This document shows, piece by piece, positions 9,778 to 62,752 of a stretch of DNA of 64,000 bases (its first letter is position 1; every line of letters begins with the position of its first letter). The stretch is from an uncultured Chloroflexia bacterium. GTDB taxonomy: Bacteria > Chloroflexota > Limnocylindria > Limnocylindrales > CSP1-4. The stretch spans positions 516,462 through 580,461 of the forward strand of contig CAVVJX010000005.1 of the NCBI GenBank assembly GCA_963748675.1. The letters run 5' to 3'. Under the pieces are notes generated by a model. It saw only the letters and a list, made by a program, of their open reading frames with translations, ran no database searches and was not told where the DNA came from. The position numbers were made by a program, and so were the translations under genes.

Positions 9778-13429
<3,652 letters not shown>

Positions 13430-13548
13430 CGGCGCAACGGTTCGATACGCACCTGTCGCGTCTCGAACGATGCGCGCCGCGAAGGTGCGTGCCCGCACGG
13501 GGGTAGAATCCCTGCCCACACTGCCTGCCTGATCGGAGCCTGCCCGCC

Positions 13549-16155: not shown

Positions 16156-16226
16156 GCACCTCGATGGCGACCGCCGCGCTGCTCGGTCGCGTCGTCATGG
16201 CCGACCGGGAGCTCTAGGCGCCGCCG

Positions 16227-24127: not shown

Positions 24128-24274
24128 CGTGCTCCTTCTGAGTTTCGATCGATTATCGCGTAGCGGCGCCGGCCGGTCGCCGTCCGCGCGTTTGGGCCAA
24201 CGCTGGTAGGGCCTTCCGGCGTACGATAGTAAACGGTTACTGGTCCCGCCCCACACGACCCCACGGAGCGCGCC

Positions 24275-28906: not shown

Positions 28907-28917
28907 GCGCGATCGAC

Positions 28918-39601: not shown

Positions 39602-39605
39602 TCGA

Positions 39606-43239: not shown

Positions 43240-43299
43240 CGGTCCCTCGATGGTAGTACGGGAGATGCCGGCGGATCCGGCACCTCCCGCTGCGTGGGT

Positions 43300-44508: not shown

Positions 44509-44585
44509 CGTTCGATCGGCGCGCCATGGTGGCCGCGCCGTAGGACGACGATCGCCCCCGCCCACGGGGGTCGTTGATCGCTCAT

Positions 44586-45455: not shown

Positions 45456-46224
45456 TCAGTACCCGCCTTCGGTGCCGGCGCCGGCCGCGGCCGCGGCGCT
45501 GACCGGTGCCTGACCGGCCTTGCGCGCCCGGAAGTCGTCGATGATCGTGTTCGTCGCCGTCGCGCCGATGCGCGTCACGCCGAGCGCCATGACCTCGAGC
45601 AGCGCGTCGAGCGTCCGGACGCCGCCGGCGGCCTTGACCTGGATGTGGGGCGAGGTGTTCGCGCGCATCAGCCGCAGGTCGTCGTGGGTCGCGCCGCCCG
45701 GCGCGAAGCCGGTCGAGGTCTTCACGAAGTCGGCGCCGGCGGCCTCGGTCAGGCGGCAGGCGCGGATCTTCTCGTCGTCGGTCAGGTAGGCGTTCTCGAA
45801 GATGACCTTGACGATCGCGCCGGCCGCGTGGGCGACCTCGACGACCGCGGCGATGTCGGCCTCGACGTCGGCGTCGCGGCCGGACTTCAGGGCGCCGATC
45901 TGGATGACCATGTCGAGCTCGGTCGCGCCGTCGGCCAGCGCCTGCTGCGCCTCGAAGACCTTCGTCTCGGTCCGGTGGTTGCCGTGCGGGAAGCCGATCA
46001 TGGTCCCGACCGCCACGTCCGTGCCGTCGAGGATGGCCGCCGCGCGGAGCGACGTCGGCCGGCCGGACGCACACGCGACGCGACGTCGTACTCGGCCGCC
46101 AGCCGGCAGCCGTCCTCGACGAACGCGTCGTCGAGCTCGGGCCGCAGCAGCGAGTGGTCGATCGTCTTGGCGATGTCGCGTTCGGTCAGCGCGTCGAAGT
46201 CGATCGTCGACAAGTTCTCGCTCA
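45456..46224 (-). CDS. deoC: Deoxyribose-phosphate aldolase family (DeoC-like class I aldolase); one frameshift near 46050
   Basis: VCVRP-like N-terminus, VAVGTMIGFPHG, FVKTSTGF (Schiff-base Lys), KAAGGVRT. GTG start overlaps the upstream stop (GTGA). Confidence 0.75.
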
Positions 46225-47137
46225 CTTGATGTAGGGCCGCAGGACGTCGCGGGCGAGCAGGAAGCCGCGCTTGATCAGGTCGTCGGTCTTCTCGAAGTCG
46301 CGGTCCTCGTGCTCGATGATCACGTCGCCGTCGAAGCCGGCTCGCCACAGGGCCGCGAACAGCGGGCCCCAGTCGACGTCGCCGAGCCCGGGCAGGCGCG
46401 GGATCTGCCAGCCGATGCCCGAGCGCGAAGACGCCGCGCTCGTAGAGGCCGTCGCGGTCGATCATCAGGTCCTTGGCCTGCACGTGGAGGATGTGCGGCC
46501 CGAACTCGCGGATGAACCGCGGGATGTCGATCATCTGGAGGATCAGGTGCGACGGGTCGAAGTTGAGCCCGATCGTGCCGCCCCACTGCTCGAGGATCCG
46601 GCGCCAGATGCGCGGCGTCGTCGCGAGGTTGTGCCCGCCCGGCCACTCGTCGTCGCTGAACAGCATCGGGCAGTTCTCGATCGTGATCTGCCGGCCGTGG
46701 TCCTCCGCGAAGGCCACGATGTCCGGCCAGACCTGGAGCGCCTCCTCCCAGTTCTGCGTCCTGGGTCTTCGCGGCGTCGGCGCCCATGAACGTGTTGACG
46801 AACGGGACGTCCATCTTCTCGGCGGCCGTGATGACGTGCTTCAGGTGGCCGATGACGGTCTCGCGATGCGCCGGATCCGGATGGAGCGGGTTCGGGTAGT
46901 AGCCGAGCCCGGAGATCGCGAGGCCCTTGCCCCGGATCTCGCCGGCCAGCTCGGTCGCCTGCCGCGCCGACAGGTTCGCGACATCGATGTGGGAGGTGCC
47001 GGCGTAGCGGCGGGTCGGCCCGCTCGAGCGCGGCCAGCAGGCGATCTCGATGCTCTCGAAGCCGTTGGCGGCCGTCCAGTCGACGACGTCGGCGAGCGGC
47101 GTCTCGGGGAACGGCGCGGTCAGCAGACCGAGCCTCA
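46221..47137 (-). CDS. Sugar-phosphate isomerase/epimerase (xylose-isomerase-like TIM barrel); frameshifted twice
   Basis: MRLGLLTAPF...FESIEIA...ITIENCPM...FDPSHL...HVQAKD over three frames (46320..47408, 45998..46717). Confidence 0.7.
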
Positions 47138-48354
47138 TCGGGACGCCTGCGCGGTGACGGGCTGCGATCGCGGGACGCCCGATCGATCGACATCCACCCA
47201 GCGGCCTTCGCGCGCGCTCTCGGCGATCGCGTCGCCGACGAGCATCTCGTCGTGGCCGTCCGCGAACGTGGGATAGCCGGGGTGGGAGGAGGGCTCCCCG
47301 GCCACCACGTCCGCGTAGACGGCCCGGAAATGGGCACAGAACGTGTCGAAGAAGCCTTCGACGTGACCGTCCAGGCAGGGCGGCGGCCGCCTTGCCCGCC
47401 GCGCCCATGAGTGCAGGGTTTCGGATGAGGATCTCGTTCGGCCGGTCGCGGTGGCCGACCCACGCCTGGTCGGGCTGCTCGGAATCCCAGGCCCAGGCCC
47501 CGTCGGATCCGTCGATCTCGTAGATGGAGCGAGTTCTTCCGGCCCGCGCTGATCTGGCTGATGCTCACCGCGCCACGGGCGCCGCCGTCGAAGCGGAGCA
47601 GGATCGAGGCGGTGTCCTCGGTCGCGATCTCGCGCTCGACGGCGTCCGTCGAGCGGTCGGTCGAGAACGTCTCGACCGGGCCGGTCGGCTCGCGCCGCGT
47701 GCCGATGAAGGTCGACAGATCGGCCATGACGGCACTGACGTGCTGGCCGGTCACGAAGGTCATGAGGTCGAGCCAGTGCGACCCGATGTCGCCGACCGCC
47801 CGGAGCGCGCCGCCGCGGTCCGGCTGGAGGCGCCAGTTCCAGTCGCTCTCGAGCAGCAGCCAGTCCTGGAAGTAGCGTCCGGTCACGAGCCGGACGTCGC
47901 CGAGGCCGCCGTCCGCGATGAGCTCGCGAGCGTGCTGGTTGAGCGGGTAGTAGCGGATGTTGAAGTTCGTCGCGTTGACGAGGCCACTCGCCGCGGCGAG
48001 GTCGACGAGTTCCGCCGATTCCGCGGCCGACATCGCCAGCGGCTTCTCGCACACGACGTGCTTGCCGGCCGCGAGGATGTCGCGGCTCTGGCTGACGTGC
48101 AGGTCGTTCGGGGAGGTGACGTGGACGACGTCGACGGTGTCGTCCGACAGCAGGTCCTCAAGGGAGTCGTAGGCGCGTGGGACGCCGAGCGCGTCGACCC
48201 GCGCCTGGCCACGTTCCGGCGTGCTGCCGAGCACGCCGCGGACCTGCACGCCGATCCGCCGCAGTGCCTCCACGTGGACCGTGCCGATGAACCCCGTCCC
48301 GATGACGGCGGCGCCGATGTCGGCGATCGTTCTCACCGTTGCTGTCTCACCCAC
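47135..48354 (-). CDS. Gfo/Idh/MocA-family NAD(P)-dependent oxidoreductase; frameshifted
   Basis: AVIGTGFIGTVHVEAL Rossmann fold, EKPLAMS, and a C-terminal alpha/beta domain from ORF 47135..48052. Translationally coupled to the TIM-barrel gene. Confidence 0.75.
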
Positions 48355-48597
48355 TGGCTGGTGCGCACAAACGTCTAGACATTCTAGCGGACGCTCGCCG
48401 CGGACCGGATCTGGTCTGGTGTCGCGCGCTCAAGGGGCCCTCCGGGTTCTCCACCCACCCCTTGCCGACGCATCATCCTAGTTTGTCCTGTCAAGTGCAA
48501 AAGAGGCTCGGATTTCACTCCTGGCGAGGGGGGATCCGTTCGGAGCGCGAATGAACGGGGTTGGGTGCTTCTGCACACCATAGCAGTACTTTAGTTC

Positions 48598-48617
48598 TTG
48601 ACAGAGATAAGTATAGT
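48598..48617 (+). promoter_or_regulatory. AT-rich promoter-like element: TTGACA (48598) and TATAGT (48612) hexamers, flanked by a partial inverted repeat ACTtTAG...TAtAGT
   Basis: Only ~40% GC over about 80 bp in a ~70% GC background, roughly 95 bp upstream of the ATG at 48712. The hexamer spacing (8 nt) is non-canonical, so the exact -35/-10 assignment is uncertain. Confidence 0.35.
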
Positions 48618-48711
48618 AGGCCGAGGACGCCAGGTTGCCAGCCCAGCGGCACGTGCTACCACCAACGCGCCACGGACACCGCGGGCCGACCTGACTGTCG
48701 AAGGAGGCACG

Positions 48712-49971
48712 ATGGTGCTCGACACGAAGCTCAGCCGGCGTCGATTGCTCCAAGCGGGCGCCGCCGGCGCCGCAGCGGCCGCGCTCTTACCTCTCGGTCC
48801 ATCGGGGGTCTTTGCGGCCGGCAAGGGCCGGCTCATCCCAGCAGGTAAAGTGGGGACGATCACCTTCACCCAGCGAGATGTGCCCGGCCGCATGGGCATC
48901 TCGACCGGCAACGCCACGATGGGGTTCCTCGGGGGCGCCAACTTCCCTGAGGATCCGACCGACCTCGGACCGCTCGTTCCGCTGCCGGGCGGCTGGAAGG
49001 AACTCTTCGAATACCTCGGCGGTGTCGGGTTCACGCAGATCGAGTTCGCGGGCTACACCCAGAACGGCGCGAACCCGGGTGGTGCTCAGCCCAGCCCGAC
49101 GACCAACCGCGCCGGCTATCTCGCCTACGCGTCCACCCTGCGCGGGTTCCTCGACGACAACGGTCTCGAGGCCATCGGCAACCACGGCTTCATCCCCAAT
49201 ACGTGGCCCGGACCGAGCAGCCCCGGCGGCGGGATGTCGACCGCCGATTACGACCGGTTCCAGACCGAGCTCGAATTCGCGTCCATCCTCGGCATGCCCT
49301 TCATGGGTACCGGCAACGACCCGACCAGCGCGAACATTCGCAGCGTCGCGTCGTGGACCATCGCGGGCGAGAAGTGGGAAGCGCTAAACACGCTCACCCT
49401 GGCCTGGGGCATCCACCTCTATCCGCACAACCACTCACCCGCCTACAACTTCCTCCAGGACGGTCCGCTCGTAACCGTCACCGAGCATCGCTTGACGGGC
49501 GCACCGATCGCCCCGACGCAGGTCCCTGCCGAATCCGGCAAGCGGTTGATGGAGTTTTACCTCGAGATCACCGATCCGGAGTCGTGCCTTATCGAGATGG
49601 ACATCTTCTGGGCGTACGTCGCCCAGCACCAGCACCGCTGGCGCTACGACGAGAACGGTGACCGGGTCGAGCACGTGTTCGATCCGCTGGCGCTCGTGGC
49701 GAGTCAGCCCAAGCGCTTCCCGTTGTATCACGCCAAGGACGGCGACAAGGTCGACGGCGCCCCGCTGACCGACAACGGTTACAACATGATCCCGTTTGGT
49801 GACCCCAGGAGTGATATCGACTTCGCGACCTTCTTCAAGGAGCAGGGCGCGAAGGGCTTCCACAATCCCAACTACGAGCAGGACAACGCTCCGGGCGGCG
49901 GTGCCGATCCTGGTCGGTCCCTGCGGTTCTCCCACATCAGCGCAGCGAACATGAACGCCCTTCGCGGGTAG
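48712..49971 (+). CDS. Tat-secreted xylose-isomerase-like TIM-barrel protein (sugar-phosphate isomerase/epimerase family)
   Basis: RBS GAAGGAGG. MVLDTKLSRRRLLQAGAAGAAAAALLPLG twin-arginine signal. No frameshifts. Codon usage is visibly less GC3-biased than in neighbouring genes. Confidence 0.75.
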   Translation: MVLDTKLSRRRLLQAGAAGAAAAALLPLGPSGVFAAGKGRLIPAGKVGTITFTQRDVPGRMGISTGNATMGFLGGANFPEDPTDLGPLVPLPGGWKELFEYLGGVGFTQIEFAGYTQNGANPGGAQPSPTTNRAGYLAYASTLRGFLDDNGLEAIGNHGFIPNTWPGPSSPGGGMSTADYDRFQTELEFASILGMPFMGTGNDPTSANIRSVASWTIAGEKWEALNTLTLAWGIHLYPHNHSPAYNFLQDGPLVTVTEHRLTGAPIAPTQVPAESGKRLMEFYLEITDPESCLIEMDIFWAYVAQHQHRWRYDENGDRVEHVFDPLALVASQPKRFPLYHAKDGDKVDGAPLTDNGYNMIPFGDPRSDIDFATFFKEQGAKGFHNPNYEQDNAPGGGADPGRSLRFSHISAANMNALRG

Positions 49972-50129
49972 CGCTCACTCGACCCCCGCGACCGGTAGGG
50001 GCGCCCGGGCCGTCACGGCTCCGGGCGCTCAACCGTTCGTCATCGGCCAACGACCCGACGTCCGCCCGCGCTCCTCGGCGCGCGCGAGCTGATCGATTCG
50101 CCCCGTGCAGGGACTGGAGGCAGGATCCG

Positions 50130-53100
50130 TTGCGCAAGGCCATCACGTTGTTGGGCCTGCTGGCCCTCGTCGGCTCGCTCGCGGCGCCCTCGGTGGCGCT
50201 GTCGGCGCCAGCCGAGAAGTACCGGGTCTTCGTGTTCACGAACGGCGCCCCGGCCTATGCCCAGAAGGGCGTCAAGGCGATCAGGGATCTCGGCAAGGCC
50301 AACGGGTTCGGGGTCCAGTCGAACGGCGACGCCGGATTGTTCACCGAGGCCGACCTCGGCCGCTTCCGGGCGGTCGTCTTCCTCGATACCACCGGCAGTC
50401 CCCTGAATGCCGCCCAGGAGGCCGCCTTCGAGGCGTACTTCCGCAACGGCGGCGGGTTCGTCGGCGTCGGGTCGGCCGTGGAGACCGAGCCCGATTGGCA
50501 GTTCCTCACGGACATCCTCGGGACGCGCTCGGCGGGCAAGCTCGGCGCCCAGACGGTCACGAACAAGGTCGCAGACCGCGGGCACGACGCGAGCAAGAAC
50601 CTGCCCGAGTACTGGAACCTCAACGACACCTACTACAACTGGGCCTCGAATGTCCGCGGCCTGAGCCACGTGCTGACCACGGTCAGCGACGCCCCCTTCA
50701 ACCGCACCGGCGACGGACCGACGATCAATGCCCTGACCGGCGGCACCATGGGCGCCGATCACCCGGTCACCTGGTGCAAGGACTACCAGGGTGGTCGCTC
50801 GTACTACACGAACCACGGCGCCTCCTCCGCTGCGTGGAACGACGCAAACCTCGTCAAGGAGCTGCTCGGCGCGATCGAGTGGGCTGCCGGCGAGTCCGAT
50901 CCCGTGTACAGCGACTGCGGCGCGACGGTCCGCGCGAATTACCAGCAGTCGTTCGTTGCAGCACCGCCGAACCTGAGCGAACCGATCGGGTTCGACGTGC
51001 TCCCCGACGGCTCCGGCCGCGTGATCCAGACCGACCGTCGCGGTGGCGTCCGGCTGCACGACCCGGCCACGAACTCGACGACCCTCATCGCCCAGATCCC
51101 GGTCTATATCGCGAACGAGGACGGGATGTACGGGCCCGAGGTGGACAACGACTTCAACACGAACAAGTGGGTCTACCTGTTCTACTCGCCGCCGACCGTC
51201 GAGGACGTGAAGTTCGCGGACGGGACGCTCCATACCGTGACCACGCCGCTGAACGACCCGGCGACGCCGCAGAACGAGCAGAACGCGCCCAACATCGCGG
51301 GTGCGCTGAGCGCGTGGGATCCGTACGTCGGCTACTTCCAGCTCTCTCGCTTCAAGCTCGTCGATGCGAGCGGTGCCACGCCGGCCCACCTCGACGTGAC
51401 CAGCGAGCAGCAGATCCTGCGGGTCCCGAACAACCGCGGCGCGTGCTGCCACGTCGCGGGCGACATCGACTTCGATTCGCACAACAACCTGTGGCTGGTC
51501 ACCGGCGACGACACGCCGTCGGGCGGTGGCAACTCCGGTGGATTCTCGCCGTTCAACGGCCAGCTCACCAATGAGAGCCAGACAGTCGCCGTCGCCAACG
51601 CGACCGGCGGCACGTTCACGCTGACATTCGACGGCCGGACGACGCAGCCCATCGCGTTCCCGCTCGATAACGCGCAGATCGAGGCGGCTCTCGAAGGGCT
51701 GTCCAACCTCGACGACGTCGCGGTGACCGGGACCGGCACCCGGACGGTCAACTTCCGCGGCAACAAGGCCGAGCAGGACGTTCCGCTGATGACGGCGGAC
51801 GCCTCAGGGCTGACGGGTACCACGCCGACCGTCACCGTCGCGATGGCGACGGTCAATAACGGCCAGGGCACCAACATCCCCGCCGATGGCGGCCTGTTCA
51901 ACGCGCCGCACGTGGACGCTCGCCGGACCGCGCAGAACACCGGCCACCTGGGCGGCAAGCTGCTACGCATCACGGTCAAATCGGGCGACATCGGCGAGGC
52001 CGAGGAAAACGACCTCGGCGGCGCCTATACCGTCCCTGCCGGCAACCTGTTCCCCGCCGGTACGGCTCGCACCCGACCCGAGATCTATGCGATGGGCTTC
52101 CGCAACCCGTTCCGGCTCACGCTGGACAAGGACGACGTGGCCTACGTCAGCGACTATTCGCCCTGACTCGCAGGTGCCACAGCAGTTCCGCGGTCCGTCC
52201 GGGACCGGGCGGTTCGAGATCGTCCGCGCGCCCGCGAACTACGGCTGGCCGCTCTGCTACAAGACCGACCTCCCGTACTACAAGTGGGACTTCAACACCT
52301 CCACGCCGCTCCCCGTGGGTGCGCCGGAGCCGCACGACTGCGACGACCCCACCCGCGGGCCGCAGAACACCTCGCGCTGGGTGGCGAACGGTGGTCCGGC
52401 CGTCGACCCAGGTCTTGAGTACGGGCCACCGATCACGAATCCCGAGATCTGGTACTCGTATCGCGACAACCAGGCGGCTCCCAACGGACCGCAAGGGACC
52501 CAGTGCTTCGCGAGCTATGGGCCCGGCGCACCGGCCAACCCGGTCGGCGCGTGCCCGCAGCTGTTCCCGGAGCTCTTCACGGGCGGCGTCGGACCGCACG
52601 GCACCGCGCCGTACGACTTCGACCCGTCCAACCCGAATCCCACGAAGTTCCCGCCGTACTGGGACGGGGCCTGGATCGCCGGCGAGTTCACCCAGGACAC
52701 GCTGCGCGAGGTCCGCATGGACTCGAACGACGAGGTCCACAAGATCAACAACACGCTGCCGTGCGGCCCGGTGCCAGCGACCCCGACGCGGCCGTGGCTC
52801 TGCGACAACCCCATGGACATGGAATTCGGGCCTGACGGCACGTTCTACCTGCTCACCTACGGTGATGGCTTCTTCGCCATCAACCCGGACGCCGGGATGA
52901 TGCGCTGGGAGTACGTCAAGGGACTCCGCGCGCCGGTCGCCGTGATCTCAGCCACGCCGACCGATGGTCCGGCGCCGCTGACCGTGGCCTTCTCGAGCGC
53001 CGGCTCGAATGACGCCGACCCCGGCGATTCGATCCGCTTCGAGTGGGACTTCGACGGCAACGGCACGGTCGACTCGATCGAGCCGAACCCGACCCACACG

Positions 53101-53940
53101 TACACGACGACCGGGCAGTTCACGGCCAAGCTATCCGTGATCGATTCGAGCGGCAAGGTCGGGTCGGCGAACACTACGATCACGGTCGGCAACACGGCGC
53201 CGGTGGTGACCATCAACGCGCCGGTCGAAGGCGGGACGTTCGTCTTTGGCGAGGACATCCCGTTCACGGTGACGGTCACCGACCCGGAGGACGGTGCGAT
53301 CGACTGCGCCGACGTCCAGGTGACCTTCGTCCTCGGCCATGACACGCACGGCCACGCCGAAGCGTCGACCTCCGGCTGCTCCGGCGTCCTGCCGACCGAC
53401 CCGGAGGGCGTGTCGCACGGCGGCAACGTGTTCGGCGTCATCAGCGCGTCGTACACCGACGGCGGGGGCGCCGGCGGTGTTCCGACCCTGACCACCGTCG
53501 CCCAGAACCAGATCCGCCAGAAGCGTCAGGAAGTGGAGTTCGTCGTCAACCAGTCCGGCACGAATGTTGCCGGCTCCACCGACGTCGGCGGTGGCTCCCA
53601 GCGTGGCGGCCTCAGCGCCGGCGACTGGCTCCAGCTCAACGGGCCGTTCAACCTGCTCAACATCGACTCGATCACGTTCCGTACGTCCGGCGGCAACAAC
53701 GGGGTCGCCAGTGGCGCGGTCGAGATCCATCGCGACACGGTCGATGGACCGATCGTGAGCACCGTGACCATCGTCGGTACCGCCAGCGGTGGGACCTACG
53801 CCAGCCAACCGTTCCCGATCGCAGACAGCGGGACCCACGAGTACTTCCTGGTCTTCCGCGCCGTCCCGACCGGACCCGGCAACAACTTCTTCAACCTCAA
53901 CTGGATCGAATTCGGAGGACCGGGGGTCTCGATCCCCTGA
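50130..53940 (+). CDS. Secreted multidomain protein: ThuA-like domain, glucose/sorbosone-dehydrogenase-like (PQQ-type) beta-propeller, PKD domain and a C-terminal carbohydrate-binding (CBM6/35-like) domain; one frameshift near 52160
   Basis: TTG start with GGAGG, and a Sec signal. YRVFVFTNGAPAY...FLDTTG (ThuA). RGACCHVAGDIDFD...EIYAMGFRNPFR (GSDH propeller). PLTVAFSSAGSNDADPGDSIRFEWDFDGNG (PKD). The NLNWIEF C-terminus (CBM). ORFs 50130..52166 and 51886..53940 are joined by a CCC versus CC indel. Confidence 0.75.
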
Positions 53941-53956
53941 GCGTCTCTCCAGCCCG

Positions 53957-53983
53957 GGGACGGTCCGGCTCACGGACCGTCCC
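53957..53983. terminator. Bidirectional hairpin with an 11-bp perfect stem (GGGACGGTCCG gctca CGGACCGTCCC) between convergent genes
   Basis: Seen in sequence between the stop of the ThuA-fusion gene (+) and the stop of the DUF1080 gene (-). Confidence 0.45.
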
Positions 53984-53990
53984 GACCGGA

Positions 53991-54734
53991 TCACGTCAGC
54001 CGGCGGATCCGGACGTTCCGGAACCACACCTCCTCGCCGTGATGCTGGAGGACCACGCCGCCGGCGTCGGCCGCCATGAAGCCCGGCAGGTCGCGGAACT
54101 TGCTGGCGTCGACCAGGGTTCGCACGTCGGCGCCGCCCCACTCGTAGTCGACCACACGGCTGCCGTTGAGCCAATGCTCGACCTGTCCCCCGTGGACCAC
54201 GATCCGCCCCGTGTTGAACGTCCCGACCGCCTCCAGGCGCTTGTCCGCATTCGGAGCGATCAGCCCGTAGAGCGCCGCTGCCGAAGTCCGCGGATCGCGG
54301 CCGTCCGGGTGTCCGCTGTCGTCGAGCACCTGGTATTCGGGACCGGTCGTCCACGAGGGCGCGTCACTCTCGACGACACGGTAGAGGACGCCGCTGTTGC
54401 CGCCCGGGCTCACGCGCCAGTCGAATTCGAGCTCGAAATCGTCGAAGGTTTCGCGCGTGACGAGGTCGACGCCGGCACCGGGCAGGGCATGGAGCTCCGC
54501 GTCCTCGACGACCCAGCTGGTCGGGAAGGCGTCCGACCCGTAGCCGCGCAGCGCCGCAGTGGACGTGCCGTCGAACAAGGCGATCCAGGGACCTTCCACG
54601 GGCGTGACCTCCGGCGTTGTGGCGATGGGTGCGGGGGAGCCGATCGGGCCGACACACGCGGCCGCCGCGAGCACCGTCGCGAGCATCGCGGCGCCCGCCA
54701 TCCGAAGCGCATCGGGCCTCGCCGACTCCTTCAT
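53991..54734 (-). CDS. DUF1080-family lipoprotein (LamG-like jellyroll; family members reported as 3-keto-disaccharide hydrolases)
   Basis: MKESARPDALRMAGAAMLATVLAAAAC lipoprotein signal. WxVEDGEL-type motifs (WVVEDAELHALPG, GNSGVLYRV, FRNVRIR) typical of DUF1080. Confidence 0.75.
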   Translation of the reverse strand: MKESARPDALRMAGAAMLATVLAAAACVGPIGSPAPIATTPEVTPVEGPWIALFDGTSTAALRGYGSDAFPTSWVVEDAELHALPGAGVDLVTRETFDDFELEFDWRVSPGGNSGVLYRVVESDAPSWTTGPEYQVLDDSGHPDGRDPRTSAAALYGLIAPNADKRLEAVGTFNTGRIVVHGGQVEHWLNGSRVVDYEWGGADVRTLVDASKFRDLPGFMAADAGGVVLQHHGEEVWFRNVRIRRLT

Positions 54735-54803
54735 CCGGCCATGGTCCCCCAATCGCCCGATCCCGTCCGTTCGGGAGCCGACGCCCGGGCGCTATCATCG
54801 CGT

Positions 54804-56121
54804 GGTGACTGAGGGGCCGACGGAGTTGGTACGTGCGCCGGTCGTTGGGCCGCATCAGCCACTTCCCGACGAGGTCCTCGACGCCCTCGTCACCGTGCTC
54901 GACGAGGTCCGCCTCGGGCGGTCGCGCTCCCGGTCCGAGCTCGTGACGAGGACCGGCCTCGGCCGGGCGATCGTGGCGCGACGGGTCCAGGAGCTGATCG
55001 ATCGCGGCCTGCTGAGCGAAGGCGAGGTCGGCCCGAGCACGGGCGGCCGACCGCCGCGACACCTCGCCTTCTGTGCGGACGCCGGGCACGTCCTGGTCGC
55101 GGACCTCGGTGCGACGAGCATCGACGTGGCCGTCACGAGCCTGGATGGCCGGATCCTTGGCCACCACGACGAGCCCGCCCGGATCGAGGACGGCCCAGAG
55201 CGGGCGCTCGAGCGCGTGGACGCCCTGTTCGAGTCCTTGCTGCGCACGACGCAGGACATCCCCGGCCGGCTATGGGGCATCGGCATCGGTGTCCCGGGGC
55301 CTGTGGAGTTCGACTCGGGGCGGCCGATCTCGCCGCCGATCATGCCGGGCTGGGACGGCTACCCGATCCGGGAACGCTTCACCCAGCGCTATCAGGCGCC
55401 GGTCTGGGTCGACAACGACGTCAACCTGCTGGCGCTCGGAGAGTGGCGATCCGGCGTCGCGTCGGGTCACGACAACGTCGTCGTCGTCAAGATCGGGACC
55501 GGGATCGGCGCCGGCATCATCTCCGATGGCCGCCTGCATCGAGGGGCTCAGGGCAGCGCCGGCGACGTGGGCCACATCCAGGTCACGGACGACCCGGCGG
55601 TCGTGTGCCGATGCGGTAATACCGGGTGCCTGGAAGCGCTCGCCGGCGGCGCCGCGCTCGGGCGCGCAGGCGAGGCCGCCGCACTCGACGGTCGGAGCCC
55701 CAGGCTGCAGGCGGCCCTCGACCTGCACGGCAGCCTGTCGGCTGAGGATGTCGCTCGGGCGGCCTCATTCGGTGACCCGGTCGCCGTGGCGCAGCTGCAG
55801 GCCGCCGGTCGGTTGGTCGGCTCGATGCTGGCGGGCATCGTGAACTTCTTCAATCCGTCGCTGATCGTCATCGGTGGCGGCGTCGCCAACAGTCCGGACC
55901 AGCTCATGGCCGCGATCCGCGGGACGATCTATCGACGGTCCCTGCCCCTCGCGACGCGAGACCTGTCGATCCAGCGCTCCTCGCTCGGTGCGCTGGCCGG
56001 TGTGATCGGCGCCTCCTCGATGGTCGTCGACCAGTTGTTCGCCCGGGGTGCCCTCGCCCGCTGGATCGAGGCCGGTGACCCGGCGTCGACGCCGGACCTG
56101 CCCCTCGCGCGCGCCGGCTAG
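54804..56121 (+). CDS. ROK-family transcriptional repressor (N-terminal HTH plus sugar-kinase-like domain)
   Basis: [31 protein letters not shown], then the ROK fold with [11 protein letters not shown]. Confidence 0.75.
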
Positions 56122-56124
56122 CCC

Positions 56125-57221
56125 ATGGGAGTCGCACAAACCCGCGTCGGGTTCATCGGCGCGGGGATCATGGCCCGCCATCACCTCGGGGAGATCCTCG
56201 ACGGGGCTTCCGACACGGAGGTCGTCGCCATCTGCGAGCCGTCGGCGGTCGCCTACGCGGCGGCGGCCCAGCTGTTCGACCAGCACGGCCTGCCGGTTCC
56301 GCCGAACGAGCCCGACTGGACCAGGTTCGTCGAGAGGTACTCCGGCCAGCTCGACGCCGCGTTCATCATCACCCCGCACGTCCTGCATTTCGCCCAGGCG
56401 ACGGCCTGCCTCGAGGCGGGCTTCGACGTCCTGCTCGAGAAGCCGATGGTCATGACCGCCAGCGAGGCGACGGCGCTCATCGACGACGCGCGACCGGACC
56501 GGGCGACTGCTCGTCGTCGCGTTCCAGGGCAGCCTCTCGCCCCAGGTCCGGGAGGCGGCCCGGATGCTGCGCTCGGGCGAGCTCGGGCCGATCCTCAACA
56601 TCAGCGCGGTCGTCTGGCAGGACTGGGCGACCCTGACCGAGGGCACCTGGCGCCAGCAGCCCGAGCTGTCCGGCGGCGGGTTCCTCTTCGATACCGGTGC
56701 CCACATGCTCAACACGGTGTCCGACCTCGCCGGTGAGGACTTCGCCGACGTGGCCGCATGGCTGGAAGACGACGGCCGGCCCGGTCGACATCCGGGCCGC
56801 CGTGATGGGCCGGCTCGTGTCTGGGGCCCTCGTCACGATGAACGCCGTTGGCAGCGCCATCCCGTCCTGCCATTCGGACATCCGCGTGTTCACGTCTAGG
56901 GCGATCCTCCGAACCGGGATCTGGGGCGAGCGACTCGAGTTGCAGCGAGCCGGGTCGGCGCGCCTGCGACGGGTCAGCTCCGTGGCCCCGATGCAGATCT
57001 GGGACCAGTTCCTCAACGTTCGGGCGGGGCGCACCGTCAACCCGAGCCCGCCCGAAGTCGGGCTGCGGATGGCGCGCCTCTGGGACGCGATCCGCGAATC
57101 GACCGAGCACGGCGGCGCCGTCATCTCCCTGCCGCGCACGGTGCCTGAGGCGCCCGAGGCGCCCGCGGAACCGGCCGGACCGGCCGGACCGAACCTCGCC
57201 GAGGCCGTCCGTCCAGTGACC
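56125..57221 (+). CDS. Gfo/Idh/MocA-family oxidoreductase; frameshifted at least twice
   Basis: [14 protein letters not shown] Rossmann fold, EKPM. The C-terminal parts are in ORFs 56564..56899 and 56697..57437. A +1-frame TGA overlaps the GTG of the next gene. Confidence 0.65.
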
Positions 57222-57933
57222 CGCGTGACCGTCTGGAACGAGTATCGCCAGGAGCGCTCCGATCCCGCCGTCGGAACGATCTACCCCGACGGCATCCACG
57301 GCGCGATCGGCGACGGTCTGCGCGCAGCCGGCTTCGACGTGCGCGACGGCGACGCTCGACGAACCGGAGCATGGACTCACCGACGAGGTCCTCGCCGCAA
57401 CCGACGTGTTGACCTGGTGGGGCCACGTCGCGCATGACGAGGTCACCGACGCCGTCGTCGACCGCGTGCATCGCCGCGTCCTCGACGGGATGGGCCTGAT
57501 CGTCCTGCACTCGGGCCACTTCTCGAGGATCTTCAAGCGGCTCATGGGCACCAGTTGCGATCTCACCTGGCGCGAAGCCGGCGAGCGGGAGCGCGTCTGG
57601 GTCGTGGATCGATCGCACCCGATCGCCGACGGGCTCGGCGAGTCATTCGTGATCGAAGCGGAGGAGATGTACGGCGAGCCGTTCGATATCCCGGCTCCCG
57701 ACCGGCTCGTCCTCGTCGGCTGGTTCCAGGGCGGCGAGGTCTTCCGGAGCGGCTGCTGCTACCAGCGCGGTCGTGGCCGGATCTTCTACTTCCAGCCCGG
57801 CCACGAGACCCATCCGACGTATTTCCACCCCGACGTTCGAACGGTGATCGCGAATGCGGCACGCTGGGCGACCCAGCCCGTGGGCGCAGCACCCGTCTAT
57901 GGGAATCGCAAGTCGCCGCCCGAGCCGCTGTGA
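57217..57933 (+). CDS. ThuA-family protein (trehalose-utilisation-type, class I glutamine-amidotransferase-like); frameshift near 57360
   Basis: [14 protein letters not shown]...[13 protein letters not shown]...IVLHSGHFS...[14 protein letters not shown]. Confidence 0.7.
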
Positions 57934-57946
57934 TGGGTCGCTGCGG

Positions 57947-58291
57947 TCAGGATCGCTGAGGGCGCTTCGCGACGAACGCCTCCGACTCCGTCGCGAGGCC
58001 CAGCCAGGCCTCGTCGGACGCCGGCTCCGCAACCGACAGCCATTCCTTCATGAGCCGGCCGTCGCCGGGATCGAAACGCTCGCCGTCACCCGCTTCGACC
58101 AGCTCGTCGACGCGGCGCCGGTCGAGCTTCACGACCAGCCGATCCTTCACGAGCATCGCGAAGATCTTGCCGTTGGTCTTGAGCGACGTCGAGCCGAACG
58201 CCTGCTGGGGGCCCGACTCGTTGCCGTAGGTCGCGGCACCTTCACTGAGGACCGTCGCGACCAACGCCGCCCATCGTTCGTCCGCGGTCAT
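57947..58291 (-). CDS. YjbR/MmcQ-family small protein (114 aa)
   Basis: [18 protein letters not shown]...GKIFAMLVKDRLVVKL resembles the YjbR-family core. Stop is adjacent to the upstream Gfo gene. Confidence 0.5.
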   Translation of the reverse strand: MTADERWAALVATVLSEGAATYGNESGPQQAFGSTSLKTNGKIFAMLVKDRLVVKLDRRRVDELVEAGDGERFDPGDGRLMKEWLSVAEPASDEAWLGLATESEAFVAKRPQRS

Positions 58292-59490
58292 TACGCGCCC
58301 GCCACGACGCGGTCCGTGAAGTCGCCCGAGGCCTCGTCCTTGAGGATCAGCTTGTGGCGCCCGTCCGGCAGGATCTCGCGCTTGATCACGACCAGCCCGT
58401 CGTACGTCTCCGGCGTGGACGCGATGCGCGCCGTCGAACCGCCCCGCCAGTCCAGCTCGACCCCCTCCCACTGGCCGGTCTTCGCCGACCGGTAGCAGGC
58501 GTCCATGATCGCGTTGACGACGTAGCCGTCGTAGAACGTCTCCTGCGGTGCGCCGCCGGTATCGATCGCACGGAACATGTCGCTGAACATGTCCACGTAG
58601 CCAAGCTCCGAGACCTCGTCGCCGACGGGGAACAGCCACCCCGCCGATGTCTCCGCCTTCTCCGCGACGTATCCGCCACCGCCCCCGGCCGTGAACATCT
58701 CGAACCCCGTCCGCAGGAAGTGGTTCAACCAGATGGTGCCGTGGGTACCGGCCACCTCGTCGCGCAGGTCCATGCCGCCGCGGAACGTCCAGCTGACCTC
58801 GAACTGGCCGATCGCTCCGGACTCGAAGCGGATCAGGGCGATCGCGTTGTCCTCGTCGGCGATGGGATGGACGAGCGTGTCGGTGTGGCACATGACGTCG
58901 ACCGGCCGGTTCCCCTTGCCGACGAAGTTGCGCACGATCTCGATGCAGTGGCAGCCGAGGTCGATGATCGCCCCGCCCCCGGTCAGCCGCCCGTCCCAGA
59001 ACCACGCGGAATGCGGCCCGGGATGCGTTTCACGCGACCGGACCCAGGTGACGTCGCCGAGCGCCCCGTCCTGCACGGCCTTGATCGCCTTGAGCGTCTT
59101 GGGCGTGTAGCACAGGTCCTCGAGGTACCCACCGAACACCCCGGCCGACTCGACGACATCGAGCATCCGCTTCGCCTCCTCGGCCGTCCGCCCAAGGGGC
59201 TTCGTACAGAGGACGGCCTTGCCCGCCTTCGCCGCCAGCCCGACGGCCTCCTCGTGGAGGAAGTTGGGCAGCGCCACGACCACGACGTCCGTGTCGGGAT
59301 GGTTCACCGCGGCCGCCAGGTCGGCCGTGGACTCGGGGATCGACCAGCGCTCGCGAAACGCCGACCCGCGCCCCTCACTGCGGGAGTACACGACCTGGAC
59401 CTGGTCACGACCGCGCTGGCCGTGCAGCGTCATCGTGTAGAAGTCGGCGATGAGCCCGGTCCCGAGCATCGAGATGCGATGGCCGTCCAT
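58291..59490 (-). CDS. Gfo/Idh/MocA-family oxidoreductase (400 aa, intact)
   Basis: [24 protein letters not shown] Rossmann fold...CTKPLGRT...long C-terminal domain. No frameshift. Confidence 0.8.
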
Positions 59491-59513
59491 GTGGTCCTCC
59501 TCCAGGTGAGCGG

Positions 59514-60489
59514 TCAGGTGGGGCGCGACGGCGCGGCCGCGAACGTGAACGCGCGCGCCGGATTGGTCACGAACAGTCGATGGCGGACCGACTCGTCCAC
59601 CCCGGCGTCCGCCAGGAGCCGGGTGAAGCCGTCGAGCAACCAGACGAGGCCAGGTCCACCGCCGTGGACCTTGTAGTAGCGACGTCGGGCGGCGTCCATC
59701 CCGAGGACGATCCGCTCGCCGTGCCCGTCCTCGACCATCCAGCGGATGAGCTGGAGGGTCCCGTTCGGCTCGTCGTCCTTCCATCGGAACGAGCCGTCGT
59801 ACTCGCCGTAGGCTCCGGACCCCAGCAGCTCGCGGTGATAGCCCCGATCGACGACCTTGTCGACGTGGCTCAGCACGATGTGCCGCGGCTGCGACGCCGT
59901 GGTCGCGCAAGGTCCGGATCTGCTCGAGGGCACCGGCGCCGTGCTCGCAGTGGGTGAGGATCGGGACGCCCGTTCGGCGATGGGCCTCGGCGGCGGCCTC
60001 GAACACGCGCCGGTCGCGGGCTGACAGGCCGCCCTCGGATCCCGCGACCTTGACGACCCCGGCACGGAACGTGGTCCGGCGCACGACCGGTCCCGCGTAG
60101 TCGTACGCATCGATGCCGTCGGTGACGTCGGCGGTGAACAGGTCCGCGAGCTCCTCGATCGAGACCCGGTGGCTCCAGTGTGCCGGGCCGTAGTAGCGGT
60201 CGTGATGCAGCCCGGTGGGCGCGACGACCTGGACGCCGGTTCGCTTCGAGAGGTCCGCCAGCTTGGCGACGTTGCGGCCCGCATCGCACGGCATGGCATC
60301 GACCACGGAGCGCAGCCCGAGAGCGGCCGCCTCGGCCAGCTCGGTCGCCATCGCGTCGACGTCCCCGAGATCGAATTCTGGCTCCAGCTCGACCGGCCGT
60401 CCGCCATCGATGACGAGGTGCTCGTGAGCGTACGTCACGCCGAGTTCTTCGGGCGCGATGTCCCCGAGCACGGTCCGGACGAAGGTCAT
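59514..60489 (-). CDS. Phosphotriesterase-family (PTE/PHP, amidohydrolase superfamily) protein; likely a lactonase or esterase; frameshift near 59950
   Basis: [12 protein letters not shown] (binuclear-metal HxH), HCEHG, and the C-terminus from ORF 59514..60407. ATGA overlap with the upstream FAD oxidoreductase. Confidence 0.7.
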
Positions 60490-61838
60490 CGCGCGACCGC
60501 CTCGGGCGCATCGGCGACCTCGAGGATCGCGCCATCGGCGCGCAGTCGATCGCGTAATGCGCTCACGTCGAGGTCGCGCGGATCGCGCCCGCCGGCCGCG
60601 GACATGGCCGCCGCCGTCCCCGCCGCCTGGCCCATCGCCATGCATTGCGCCATCGAGCGGACCGATGCGTGCGCGTCGTGCGTGGCGCTGAAGCAGCGGC
60701 CGGCGACGAGCACGTTGGTCGCGTCCCGCACCACCAACGACCGATACGGGATCCCGACCGCCCCGCCGTCGGGCAGGTACTGCCAGACCGTGTCCGCGCC
60801 GCCGTGATGGTCCTCGATCGGCGCACCGCACAGGCCGATCGCGTCGTCGAAGGCGCGCGCGCCAAGCACGTCGTCCCGGGTCAGCCGGTAGTCGCCATAG
60901 ACCCGGCGGGTCTCACGAACCCCGATCTGCGTGCCGAGCGCGACCAGCGACGCGTGTTCGTAGCCGGGCACGCGATCGACGAGGAACCGGACGTATTCGA
61001 GCGCCTGGCGCCGGCCGGCGATCTCGGCCTCGGTCAGGAACCAGGGATCCGTGGCGTTGATGAGGTTGCCGTCGGCGTCGCGCCGGACCGAATCGAGTCT
61101 CGTCATGATCGTGGCCGTCACGCCGTCGATCGGCGTGATGTGGTCACTGCCCTCGCGCCGGGGCAGGTCGTAGTCGCCCGAGTCCGCGGCCTCGGCCATC
61201 AGCCGGTGGAAATCGGTCTTGGAGATCGCGCGCCGCCGCTCGAGGTCGACGTTGGCCATGCGGAAGGTCGTCGTCAGCGTCTGGGCCGGGTCGATGTCAC
61301 CCGCCGTCTCGTAGCCGAATCCCGCGAAGGCGCACAGGTCCGCGTCGCCCGACGCATCCACGAAGGTTCTCGCGCGCACGCGCGCGAGACCGGCCCGCGT
61401 CGCGACGACGATCGTCTCGACGCGTCCATCGCGGACCTCGGCCGCCTGGACGAGCGCATGGAGGAGCGGCCGAGCGCCGGATCCGGTCACGAGCCGCTCC
61501 CACACGACCTTGAGGTGCTCCGCGAGGTAGGTCACGCCGGTCCCGGCGCCGTAGGTGTTGGGCCGTTCCACGACGGGGCCGAGTTCCCGCAGGCCCGCCA
61601 CGACGTCGTCGCCGATGCCACCGACCACCTTGCGCGCGGACGATCCCGGCGTGTAGAAGCCGTAGAACGTGTCGAGGACCGCGGTGCTCGTGCCGCCGAG
61701 GAACGGCAGCCGATCGATCAGCAGGACCGACGCTCCGCCTCGGGCTGCGGCGATGGCCGCGGTCGATCCGGCGGAGCCCGATCCGACGATGCACACGTCG
61801 ACGTCGGCGATCGTGGGTGCCGTTGCCTTGAACGTCAT
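60486..61838 (-). CDS. FAD-dependent oxidoreductase (FAD_oxidored / GlcNAc-locus-type family, 450 aa)
   Basis: [22 protein letters not shown] (GxGxxG) and an intact ORF. ATGA coupling on both sides. Confidence 0.75.
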
Positions 61839-62653
61839 GGGCCGGGCTCCGGCCCGGCCTCGGGCTCGGGGGACACGGACGTCACCGACCAGCCGCCATC
61901 GACCTTGAGCATCTGGCCCGTGACGGCCCGCGATTCGTCCGAGAGGAAGTAGATGGCCGCTTGGGCGACCTCGTCGGGGTCGAGCATCTCACCGGCGAGC
62001 GGCTGCTTCCGGCGGGCGTACGCGAGGATCGCCGGATCGTGGGCCGCGCGCGTCGCCATCGGTGTCCTCGTCAGCGAGGGCGCCACGATGTTGACCCGGA
62101 TGCCGTCGGGCGCATAGGTGGCGGCCATCGTCGTCATCAGGGCCGTGAGCGCGCCCTTCGCGGCGGCATAGGCGTGGGTCGCGAACAGCTCCGGTGCCGG
62201 GTCCGTCGTGGTGACGCTGCCCAGCAGCAGGACGGACCCGTGCGTCCCGGAGGCGTTGGGGGGCTGCTGCAGCATCTGGCGGACGACCGCGGCGCAGACC
62301 AGCACCTGGGTCCGCAGGTTGAGGGCGGCCGTGGCTTCCCAGGCATTGCCCGTCACCGTGTGGATCGGGCCGTCACCGAACCGCCGTCCGCTCCCGCCGG
62401 CGACCGAGAACAGGCCGTCGATCCGACCGAACCGCTCGACGGCGGCGGTCACGGCGGCGCCCACCTCGGCCTCCTCGGTCAGCTCGGCCTGCGCCCACGC
62501 GGCACCCAGGCGCTCCGCGAGCCCGCGGGCGTGGTCGGCGGTTCGCGACGTGACGAAGACGCTCGCTCCCTCCGCGACGCAGCGTTCCGCAGCCGCGGCG
62601 GCGATGCCGGTGGAACCCGTGATGAGGATCACACGATCGCGCAGGCGGTCCAT
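61835..62653 (-). CDS. SDR-family oxidoreductase
   Basis: ITGSTGIAAAAAE, YAAAKGAL. First gene of the coupled minus-strand operon, divergent from the MocR regulator. Confidence 0.8.
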   Translation of the reverse strand: MDRLRDRVILITGSTGIAAAAAERCVAEGASVFVTSRTADHARGLAERLGAAWAQAELTEEAEVGAAVTAAVERFGRIDGLFSVAGGSGRRFGDGPIHTVTGNAWEATAALNLRTQVLVCAAVVRQMLQQPPNASGTHGSVLLLGSVTTTDPAPELFATHAYAAAKGALTALMTTMAATYAPDGIRVNIVAPSLTRTPMATRAAHDPAILAYARRKQPLAGEMLDPDEVAQAAIYFLSDESRAVTGQMLKVDGGWSVTSVSPEPEAGPEPGP

Positions 62654-62752
62654 GCCCACAATGATGACGCGGCGGCCGCGCACGGACGCAGCCGCGCAGG
62701 AGATGGTGCGCGGAGTGCAGAGCCGGCCGTGCTGCGCTAGCATCGCTGGCAT

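Follow-up and report, generated by a model that had tools for sequence, protein, structure and literature searches.

Oxidative, non-hydrolytic cleavage of glycosides was worked out only in 2020–2024, in gut Bacteroidota, in Agrobacterium and in a few C-glycoside degraders. The AL/BT 'non-Koshland' system of Alistipes and Bacteroides thetaiotaomicron (BT2156-2160) combines, outside the cytoplasm, an exported TIM-barrel lyase and a DUF1080 lipoprotein (lyase/hydratase) with a Gfo/Idh/MocA (Gfo) 3-dehydrogenase exported by twin-arginine translocation (Tat) (BT_2158/BT_2159), and its AL1/BT1 lyases have a His/Asp/His metal site, a Trp and a catalytic Glu (bioRxiv 10.1101/2024.03.25.586180). In the GlycDH/AtOGE/AtHYD/Gfo pathway of Agrobacterium tumefaciens (PMC10628242) and the levoglucosan LgdA-B-C pathway, a TIM hydratase-like protein is paired with a Gfo oxidoreductase. 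In this study, we compared these systems with a sugar-catabolic locus in a 64,000-nt stretch of DNA (the window; contig CAVVJX010000005.1, GC content 66–74%) from an uncultured Chloroflexia bacterium. The comparison draws on domain identities, active-site conservation, signal sequences and neighbourhoods that recur across phyla, all of which were observed here. We tentatively read the locus as a sugar-catabolic island whose conserved core serves the non-hydrolytic oxidative cleavage of glycosides or glycans in two compartments, a reading to which we would give a little less than an even chance. A scan of one genome per species provided three collinear loci from soil metagenome-assembled genomes (MAGs), L001, L006 and L008, with nucleotide identities to the window of 87–92%, 88–91% and 84–88%, respectively.

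Gene content compared with described systems

The locus shares with the AL/BT system an exported TIM barrel and a DUF1080 lipoprotein that are both predicted to act outside the cytoplasm, the active-site residues of BT2, the Asp/Trp motif of AL1 and the presence of Gfo oxidoreductases. What sets it apart from the known systems is the exported part. The Tat signal sits here on the lyase-like TIM barrel, which we call TatX, and no Gfo 3-dehydrogenase of the Tat-exported BT_2158/BT_2159 kind is present; the sole secreted redox candidate is instead a ThuA-GSDH-PKD-CBM6 protein. Moreover, TatX belongs to a separate, tightly conserved family of 420 aa with remote similarity to AL1/BT1, and the closest relatives of the locus are labelled Chloroflexia or Actinomycetota MAGs, not Bacteroidota.

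Two xylose-isomerase-like TIM barrels had been claimed in the original prediction. The one at 46222 (TIM1) was recovered by Pfam (AP_endonuc_2), whereas that at 48712 (TatX) has no Pfam TIM-barrel match of its own and is recognised only by remote homology. A sequence search with TatX found 3obe (E = 2e-4). Its best 120 homologues are 67–87% identical to it, and PF01261 is carried by many homologues of 70–88% identity. The family is compact at about 420 aa; 330 clusters at 50% identity match its profile (E ≤ 0.001), most of them being fragments, and the twin arginines R9 and R10 are invariant in 34 homologues. The AlphaFold model is mediocre overall (mean pLDDT 61.7), with most of the core (about residues 130–340) at 72–95. 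Foldseek ranked the uncharacterised 3obe first among PDB structures, followed by the AL1/BT1 3-keto-beta-glucopyranoside-1,2-lyases (3.5e-10 to 1.6e-9) and, lower down among other TIM barrels, AtOGE (1.5e-7), AtHYD (3.0e-7) and a C-glucosyl deglycosidase (3.9e-7). In the family profile, TDPxxxxxELDIYWA aligns with AL1 such that D297 corresponds to the metal ligand Asp211 and W300 to the substrate-binding Trp214, and the invariant H239-N-H241 has the same spacing as His178/His180 of AL1. TatX may thus be regarded, by sequence and predicted fold, as a candidate 3-keto-glycoside 1,2-lyase.

The predicted DUF1080 lipoprotein at 53991 was borne out both by Pfam and by its N-terminus (Table 1). Its best PDB matches are structures of the BT2/AL2 type (8tda/8rr2, about 4e-31), and seven of the eight active-site residues of BT2 are kept (N134, E164, Q166, Y190, K245, Q273 and H275), with Glu103 being ambiguous. 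These residues were mapped through an alignment to 3osd, whose index differs by 25 from the BT2 numbering in the literature; four motifs served as a check of this shift.

Both ThuA domains of the original prediction (50130 and 57217) are present by Pfam; however, the one at 50130 does not stand alone but is fused with the PKD/CBM6 open reading frame (ORF) that follows. A private 1-nt insertion (T, 52164) splits this large gene into the ORFs 50130–52166 and 52165–53940, while L006, L042 and L046 have it as a single ORF of 1126–1272 aa and in L008 the frame continues across the junction. The GSDH profile (PF07995) was matched with 55 bits only at its positions 1–72. Propeller profile matches were 3a9g (3.4e-8), 2ism (3e-6) and 7cdy ('glucose dehydrogenase'), which we take to be aldose sugar dehydrogenases, and the motifs of the six-bladed family are visible in the alignment. 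With the soluble pyrroloquinoline quinone (PQQ) aldose dehydrogenases and AA12-like secreted quinoproteins, the protein shares these propeller motifs, carbohydrate-binding modules and secretion; it differs from them in its ThuA fusion, large insertions, lack of a cytochrome domain and TatX partner, and its cofactor is putative. The ThuA domain is too divergent to give a BLAST match to rhizobial ThuA, and in the literature we found no characterised example of a ThuA+GSDH+CBM6 protein or of ThuA biochemistry. No NCBIfam model matches this protein, TatX, the DUF1080 protein or the stand-alone ThuA2. Taken together, the ThuA-GSDH-PKD-CBM6 protein is, judging from its domains, the only secreted redox candidate of the locus and likely its oxidase. 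A separate observation concerns an insert of about 100 aa in the propeller (GGTFTLTFDG...; about 51570–51850, residues 480–575 or so), which matches a phage 'tail tip cage gp23' chain (9d93, 3e-9 to 6.5e-12) and occurs in the window, L006 and L046 but not in the Micromonospora or L045 homologues.

TatX and the large secreted gene lie on the plus strand, divergent from an operon on the minus strand that encodes, in this order, Gfo1, TIM1, DeoC, a SIS-domain isomerase, a substrate-binding lipoprotein, an ATP-binding cassette (ABC) ATPase, two permeases, a ROK kinase and a GntR/HutC regulator. The original prediction let the locus start at 45456; by Pfam, the operon reaches further, to 37865. The stop codon of Gfo1 overlaps the start of TIM1. 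The closest PDB relatives of Gfo1 are uncharacterised oxidoreductases, followed by levoglucosan dehydrogenase (6a3f, 1e-41) and the scyllo-inositol/L-glucose dehydrogenase LgdA (5ya8, 7e-38), and its top NCBIfam match is the LGDH model (NF052479; 171.7 bits versus a cutoff of 650). TIM1 matches Pfam in three pieces (profile positions 1–93, 95–191 and 202–242) and, among PDB sequences, SCO6571 (2zds, 7e-10) and the hydratase AtHYD (8ro4, 5.7e-6 over residues 14–278 of 304); its homologues include proteins of 56% identity in the Chloroflexota genome ZRK35 and of 44% in Enterococcus raffinosus. On this sequence similarity, TIM1 is a candidate keto-glycal hydratase resembling AtHYD. The operon recalls the Agrobacterium and levoglucosan pathways in pairing a TIM hydratase-like protein that matches 8ro4 with a Gfo of the LGDH-related clade. 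It differs from them in that there is no GMC-type GlycDH, that Gfo1 scores far below the LGDH cutoff and that the operon also contains a ROK kinase, a SIS isomerase, DeoC and an ABC transporter.

Instead of the four Gfo genes claimed originally, tblastn found only three in the window, the gene at 47135 and the one described as coupled to the TIM barrel being two frames of one frameshifted gene, Gfo1. None of the three reaches a curated equivalog cutoff of NCBIfam: Gfo1, Gfo2 and Gfo3 score 171.7, 73 and 116 bits against the LGDH model (cutoff 650), 102, 50 and 115 bits against IolG (cutoff 355), and 27–36 bits against the BT_2158 and BT_2159 family models (cutoffs 750 and 650).

The combination of Gfo with ThuA had been taken as the core of a ThuAB pathway, and this held for one partner only. 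ThuA2 is a ThuA orthologue, with identities of 58% to Rhizobium etli and 61% to Sinorhizobium meliloti pSymB (both over at least 92% of the length) and of 69% to Deinococcus, and the R. etli match is annotated as 'trehalose utilization protein ThuA' and lies in a thuEFGKAB-like locus. Gfo2, which is 25% identical to R. etli ThuB and weakly similar to GFOR-type enzymes in the PDB, is not a ThuB orthologue. As in the rhizobial thuEFGKAB system, ThuA2 is translationally coupled to a Gfo gene; unlike there, the gene order is reversed, no thuEFGK/CUT1-type transporter is adjacent, the second ThuA domain of the locus is beyond the reach of BLAST, and close relatives can do without the Gfo2-ThuA2 pair. 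Between the ROK stop codon and a YjbR-like gene, the pair occupies a cleanly delimited segment of 1.84 kb (56122–57960) that is found in the window and L008 and replaced by about 30–45 bp in L001 and L006. The ROK, FAD oxidoreductase, PTE-family, SDR and MocR-like genes of the original prediction were all confirmed by Pfam/NCBIfam. The flavoprotein (PF12831) is unusually conserved, its best 120 homologues being 82–96% identical and, where named, labelled Chloroflexota or Ca. Limnocylindrales; it is abundant in Chloroflexota MAGs. Together with the labels of the closest loci, this points to an origin of the window in that soil lineage and speaks against an actinobacterium, an assignment that its GC content of 71% had at first suggested.

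Recurrence, gene order and regulation

TatX adjoins the ThuA-GSDH gene in 29 of the 41 loci that encode ThuA-GSDH relatives, and the pair is conserved across genomes labelled Actinomycetota and Chloroflexota. In Micromonospora sp. NBC_00389 the two genes stand alone among transposase genes. In Phytohabitans, TatX, ROK, ABC ATPase, permease, a Gfo1-like gene and ThuA-GSDH lie on one strand; in L027 and L029, Gfo-TIM-ROK is divergent from ThuA-GSDH-TatX; L045 has TatX, a GSDH-PKD protein, TIM, ROK, an ABC system, Gfo and TIM; and L046 repeats ROK-TatX-ThuA/GSDH with a convergent DUF1080 gene. TatX occurs on its own in L047. A Rhodothermales contig (L031, 4420–7719) codes for an exported protein of 1099 aa in which an N-terminal repeat region is combined with three DUF1080 domains in tandem. 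Its gene directly precedes that of a 52% identical Gfo1 homologue, and a ThuA-GSDH-PKD gene lies about 1.5 kb upstream of it. The recurring core is thus defined by TatX and ThuA-GSDH-CBM6, with DUF1080, ROK, a sugar ABC transporter and Gfo-TIM as further members.

The cytoplasmic genes recur as well. The Gfo1-TIM1-ROK kinase triad is found in Chloroflexota ZRK35 (52%, 56% and 40% identity, respectively), where a DeoC-Gfo-TIM-GntR set lies on the same plasmid; the order Gfo-TIM-DeoC returns in L048, and the Gfo/TIM pair in the DeoC-Gfo-TIM-GntR unit of L052 is a more distant one. On an E. raffinosus megaplasmid (NZ_CP081847.1; L053, 2741–9865), the order is MFS, Gfo, TIM, DUF6379, Gfo, TIM (44% identical to TIM1) and ROK. 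This cluster looks like a Dgp-type C-glycoside locus in an enterococcus, and as the TIM1 homologue follows Gfo/TIM/DUF6379, the TIM1 family is located downstream of a lyase of the Dgp type. SDR-FAD-PTE-Gfo forms a self-standing four-gene cassette in L048, where it again lies beside ROK and Gfo-TIM-DeoC, and in L049, where it lies beside housekeeping genes. The ThuAB-like Gfo2-ThuA2 pair and the MocR-linked SDR-FAD-PTE-Gfo3 cassette are therefore neighbouring but separable units. The original prediction had treated 17 kb as one unit; this could not be upheld, given at least four transcription units, three regulators, and the independent coming and going of Gfo2-ThuA2 and SDR-FAD-PTE-Gfo3 in relatives.

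The three regulators are of different types (GntR/HutC, ROK and MocR). The operator consensus of the HutC subfamily is GT-n-TA-n-AC. A palindrome upstream of Gfo1, GTCTAGAC, fits this pattern, has its only copy in the window at this place and is conserved in the window, L001, L006 and L008; it is a candidate operator of the HutC-type regulator. Upstream of TatX (48477–48711) we observed conserved non-coding blocks, CATCCTAGTTTGTCCTGTCAAGTGCAAAAG and TTGACAGAGATAAGTATAGT, followed by a leader of about 90 nt, which are kept in L001, L006 and L008. Rfam gave no match in the conserved TatX leader or the Gfo1-TatX intergenic region, and a scan of the same sequences for sigma-70 promoters and terminators found nothing, with no canonical sigma-70 spacing.

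Table 1. Features of the locus in the window (aa, amino acids; HTH, helix-turn-helix)
Feature	Position	Strand	Evidence and remarks
GntR/HutC-type regulator (GntR + UTRA), last operon gene	37865..38641	-	Pfam; NCBIfam below all equivalog cutoffs
ROK-family sugar kinase, without HTH	38641..39612	-	Pfam ROK 191 bits; ROK_glcA_fam 171 vs cutoff 260
Two BPD_transp_2 permeases	39606..41614	-	39606-40454 intact; 40605-41614 frameshifted; Pfam and corrected translation
Two-domain ABC ATPase, monosaccharide/CUT2-type	41611..43283	-	Frameshifted; Pfam, orthologue match
Peripla_BP_4 substrate-binding lipoprotein	43317..44561	-	Several frameshifts; best NCBIfam YtfQ/RbsB, below cutoffs
SIS-domain sugar isomerase, PRK02947 family	44585..45425	-	Frameshifted; NF002805 258.6 bits vs cutoff 135
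Deoxyribose-phosphate aldolase DeoC	45456..46218	-	N-terminal part in other frame; TIGR00126 225.8 bits vs cutoff 117.3
TIM1, cytoplasmic xylose-isomerase-like TIM barrel (AP_endonuc_2)	46222..47138	-	Three frames; private insertions 46417, 46755
Gfo1, Gfo/Idh/MocA oxidoreductase	47135..48336	-	Frameshifted; private insertions 47373, 47526; private deletions 47167, 47183
Palindrome GTCTAGAC, candidate operator	48373..48380		37 nt upstream of Gfo1 start
TatX, xylose-isomerase-like TIM barrel with Tat signal (SRRRLL)	48712..49971	+	Intact ORF; weak TAT_signal match, remote homology, fold search
Single secreted protein of ~1270 aa: signal peptide, ThuA, GSDH-type beta-propeller, PKD, Ig-like, CBM6	50130..53940	+	Split by private insertion
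DUF1080 / 3keto-disac_hyd, probable lipoprotein	53991..54752	-	PF06439 147 bits vs cutoff 26.8; N-terminal hydrophobic stretch ending in Cys
ROK-family regulator (winged-helix N-terminus + ROK)	54559..56121	+	Start codon uncertain, conserved from ~54859
Gfo2, Gfo/Idh/MocA	56125..57219	+	Three frames; starts 3 nt after ROK stop
ThuA2, stand-alone ThuA	57216..57933	+	Start overlaps Gfo2 stop; private insertion 57341; Pfam ThuA 115 bits on C-terminal fragment
Small YjbR/TfoX_N-like protein	57950..58291	-	Weak Pfam matches below cutoffs
Gfo3, Gfo/Idh/MocA	58291..59490	-	Intact; best PDB 6nor 2e-31, 6a3f, 6jw6
PTE-family (lactonase-like) amidohydrolase	59514..60489	-	One frameshift ~59888; phospho-furanose lactonase model 187 bits vs cutoff 630
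PF12831 FAD-dependent oxidoreductase	60486..61838	-	Intact; 364 bits
SDR oxidoreductase, first gene of SDR-FAD-PTE-Gfo3 cassette	61835..62653	-	Pfam, NCBIfam
MocR-type regulator, divergent from cassette	~62715..64000	+	Runs off window; Aminotran_1_2 at 62975-63998 (only domain scanned); extent from L006 orthologue

Elsewhere in the window, a separate plus-strand operon (24233–29982) encodes a DHDPS-family protein, a GMC oxidoreductase (25213–26685), an ORF, an aldehyde dehydrogenase and a LacI regulator, with no adjacent TIM barrel. Glycoside 3-oxidases are found among GMC enzymes; as a CarA-type oxidase of the present system, however, the GMC gene was rejected on account of its DHDPS, aldehyde dehydrogenase and LacI neighbours and its distance of 20 kb. 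Further upstream (14329–22045), a single-chain xanthine-dehydrogenase-like molybdenum enzyme of 1229 aa (FAD, 2Fe-2S and molybdenum cofactor) lies between two PEP-utiliser/PPDK-like proteins. In L049 (12511–17350), a PPDK-like gene and separately encoded molybdenum-enzyme subunits directly adjoin the SDR-FAD-PTE-Gfo cassette, indicating that gene order has been rearranged between relatives.

Frame-breaking indels in the window

The third-position GC frame plot showed hops of the coding frame at 40.4–48.4 kb, 56.1–57.9 kb and about 59.9 kb, with clean genes in places elsewhere. As written, Gfo1, TIM1, DeoC, the SIS gene, the substrate-binding protein, the ABC ATPase, one permease, Gfo2, ThuA2 and the PTE gene are not intact, and an ORF-by-ORF reading of the window, which in places has about one frame-breaking indel per kb, is thereby unreliable. 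A four-way alignment of the window with L001, L006 and L008 over 40.1–56.1 kb revealed 35 non-triplet insertions private to the window, all of 1 nt; its private non-triplet deletions number 11, and all but one (2 nt) likewise concern a single nucleotide. The majority are at or below 48.6 kb and only four above 50 kb, so that their density is about 5/kb in 40.1–48.6 kb versus about 0.5/kb in 48.6–56.1 kb. Five further private insertions in 56.1–57.95 kb bring the total to about 50. L006 has two private non-triplet events, and L001 and L008 each have their own sets elsewhere.

These frameshifts are most probably assembly or read errors rather than gene decay, because the broken genes are intact ORFs in L006 and L008, the private indels are biased towards insertion and lie outside homopolymers, and the window-branch private substitutions in seven broken genes fall mostly on codon position 3 (137, or 61%, versus 46 and 43 at positions 1 and 2, respectively). 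When the private indels were removed under the guidance of orthologue frames, the corrected proteins were full length, had zero internal stops and were 82–97% identical to their orthologues. In addition, the housekeeping gene pyrG (CTP synthase, 11497–13529) is split, with CTP_synth_N (profile positions 1–231 of 265) and GATase in different frames, which again argues for sequence errors. It is unlikely, in our view, that the locus, or at least 40–48.6 kb and 56–58 kb of it, is a decaying pseudogene set in this organism. Such decay would fit the tenfold contrast in indel density given above, an excess of position-1 and position-2 substitutions in the window relative to L001 and L006, and a +1 frameshift at about 59888 in the PTE-like gene, which the window shares with L001 but not with L006 or L008 and which reflects either a genuine mutation common to both or a systematic error in sequencing. 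Real gene decay, however, brings far more substitutions than indels, and the estimated excess of about 60 substitutions over the codon-position pattern of L001/L006 is about equal to the 44 private indels. The preponderance of insertions over deletions, the lack of nonsense codons once frames are corrected, the frameshift in pyrG and the occurrence of private indels at other places in L001 and L008 count against decay too.

Proposed pathway and alternative readings

In the pathway that we propose, the ThuA-GSDH-PKD-CBM6 protein would bind a glycan through its CBM6 outside the cell and oxidise one of the sugar hydroxyls, with C3 as the most plausible site. TatX, exported by Tat and presumably metal-dependent, would then remove the leaving group of the 3-keto-glycoside by 1,2-elimination, while the DUF1080 lipoprotein would eliminate from the other anomer and hydrate the keto-glycal. 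The resulting keto-sugar or keto-glycal would be taken up by the monosaccharide-type ABC transporter, and in the cytoplasm TIM1 (AtHYD-like) would hydrate it and Gfo1 reduce it; the ROK kinase may phosphorylate the product, with the SIS isomerase and the DeoC aldolase feeding central metabolism. Every catalytic step, C3 as the site of oxidation, the substrate and the electron acceptor are what we infer. Of the two substrate classes considered in the original prediction, a 3-keto-glycoside route of oxidation, elimination, hydration and reduction is favoured by the DUF1080 residues, the fold and motif of TatX, the TIM1–AtHYD match and ThuA2, whereas cleavage of C-glycosides is not.

Several points weigh against this pathway. 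A secreted glycoside 3-dehydrogenase of proven type was not found, as the three Gfo proteins, whose N-termini begin directly with the Rossmann motif, have no evident signal peptide and score far below the cutoffs of the BT_2158/BT_2159 models (27–36 bits versus 650–750). The large secreted protein contains no electron-transfer or cytochrome domain, and the site oxidised by all characterised GSDH-family enzymes is, to our knowledge, C1 of aldoses. The likeness of TatX to AL1/BT1 is remote (sequence E of about 0.03, 14–16% identity, on a model of low mean pLDDT), DUF1080 accompanies the TatX/ThuA-GSDH pair in only about six loci, the known pathways of oxidative glycoside cleavage offer no role for SIS and DeoC, and the three regulators imply separate control. 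Should the indels be real, much of the system would be dead in this genome.

The separate regulators are also among the grounds for an alternative in which independent sugar operons for unrelated substrates lie side by side by chance and resemble one pathway only owing to the abundance of Gfo and TIM genes in soil bacteria. The cassette beside housekeeping genes in L049, the absence of Gfo2-ThuA2 from L001 and L006, and the isolated occurrence of the pair in Micromonospora and of TatX in L047 agree with it. Yet TatX, ThuA-GSDH, ROK, ABC, Gfo, TIM and DUF1080 recombine in different orders in distant lineages, and in L048 the cassette is again beside ROK and Gfo-TIM-DeoC, so that we consider mere juxtaposition rather unlikely. 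If instead the GSDH protein were an AA12-like C1-dehydrogenase of aldoses or oligosaccharides, it would produce aldonolactones at the reducing ends of glycans, the PTE, SDR and FAD proteins would process sugar acids, and TatX and DUF1080 would have other roles. The propeller matches to 3a9g, 2ism and 7cdy, the relationship of the PTE protein to the phospho-furanose lactonase model, which is its closest, and the comparison of secreted CBM-bearing GSDH proteins of cellulose-grown Teredinibacter with AA12 (PMC12055684) speak for this possibility. It appears quite improbable when set against the lack of linkage between the PTE cassette and the GSDH protein outside the closest relatives, and against the regular GSDH partner being TatX, whose nearest characterised folds are 3-keto-glycoside lyases. 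A further objection is that the propeller is fused to a ThuA domain, as genetics link ThuA with the formation of 3-keto-sugars.

The best characterised relatives of Gfo1 (6a3f and 5ya8) and its top NCBIfam match, LGDH, raise the question whether the Gfo1-TIM1 operon catabolises a cyclitol or an anhydro-sugar (scyllo-inositol, L-glucose or levoglucosan) rather than products of glycoside cleavage. This is very improbable in the light of scores far below the cutoffs for LGDH and IolG (see above) and for IolE (27 bits versus 290 for TIM1), and of AtHYD being the characterised match of TIM1; no other iol domain (IolB/C/D-type) was found among about 60 ORFs and fragments scanned. A reassignment to inositol catabolism, which the original prediction had named as the outcome that would overturn it, is accordingly not indicated, Gfo1 and Gfo3 reaching only 102–115 bits and Gfo2 50 bits with IolG. 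A DgpABC/CarABC-type system for the deglycosylation of C-glycosides (flavonoids) could likewise draw on the presence of Gfo and TIM-barrel genes, the TIM1 homologue in the Dgp-like Enterococcus cluster and the GMC oxidoreductase at 25.2 kb. The last is, however, part of the distant DHDPS/aldehyde-dehydrogenase/LacI operon, and tblastn with the E. raffinosus queries, the DUF6379 protein and its partner TIM barrel, found no DUF6379 or CGD alpha subunit in the window, nor was such a Pfam domain present in the scanned ORFs. Neither TIM barrel matches a C-C lyase by sequence, and hardly any weight can be given to C-glycoside cleavage.

Returning to the oxidative pathway in two compartments, TatX and the ThuA-GSDH-PKD-CBM6 protein may together form a self-contained, horizontally mobile, secreted machine that would cleave polysaccharides or glycosides extracellularly, through oxidation and elimination in place of hydrolysis, and would use a propeller dehydrogenase instead of an NAD-bound Gfo, a speculative proposal with only a small likelihood of being correct. 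If true, it would be an extracellular, CBM-targeted counterpart of the periplasmic pathway of Bacteroides.

In summary, this locus, together with about 30 syntenic relatives, suggests a differently built version of oxidative, non-hydrolytic glycoside cleavage in abundant soil bacteria, in which a lyase/hydratase pair is exported and the oxidase is likely a ThuA-propeller protein with a CBM6. Were this confirmed, it would give a biochemical role to ThuA domains and to CBM-linked GSDH proteins, add a non-hydrolytic route to soil carbohydrate turnover and provide broad-specificity enzymes for biocatalysis.

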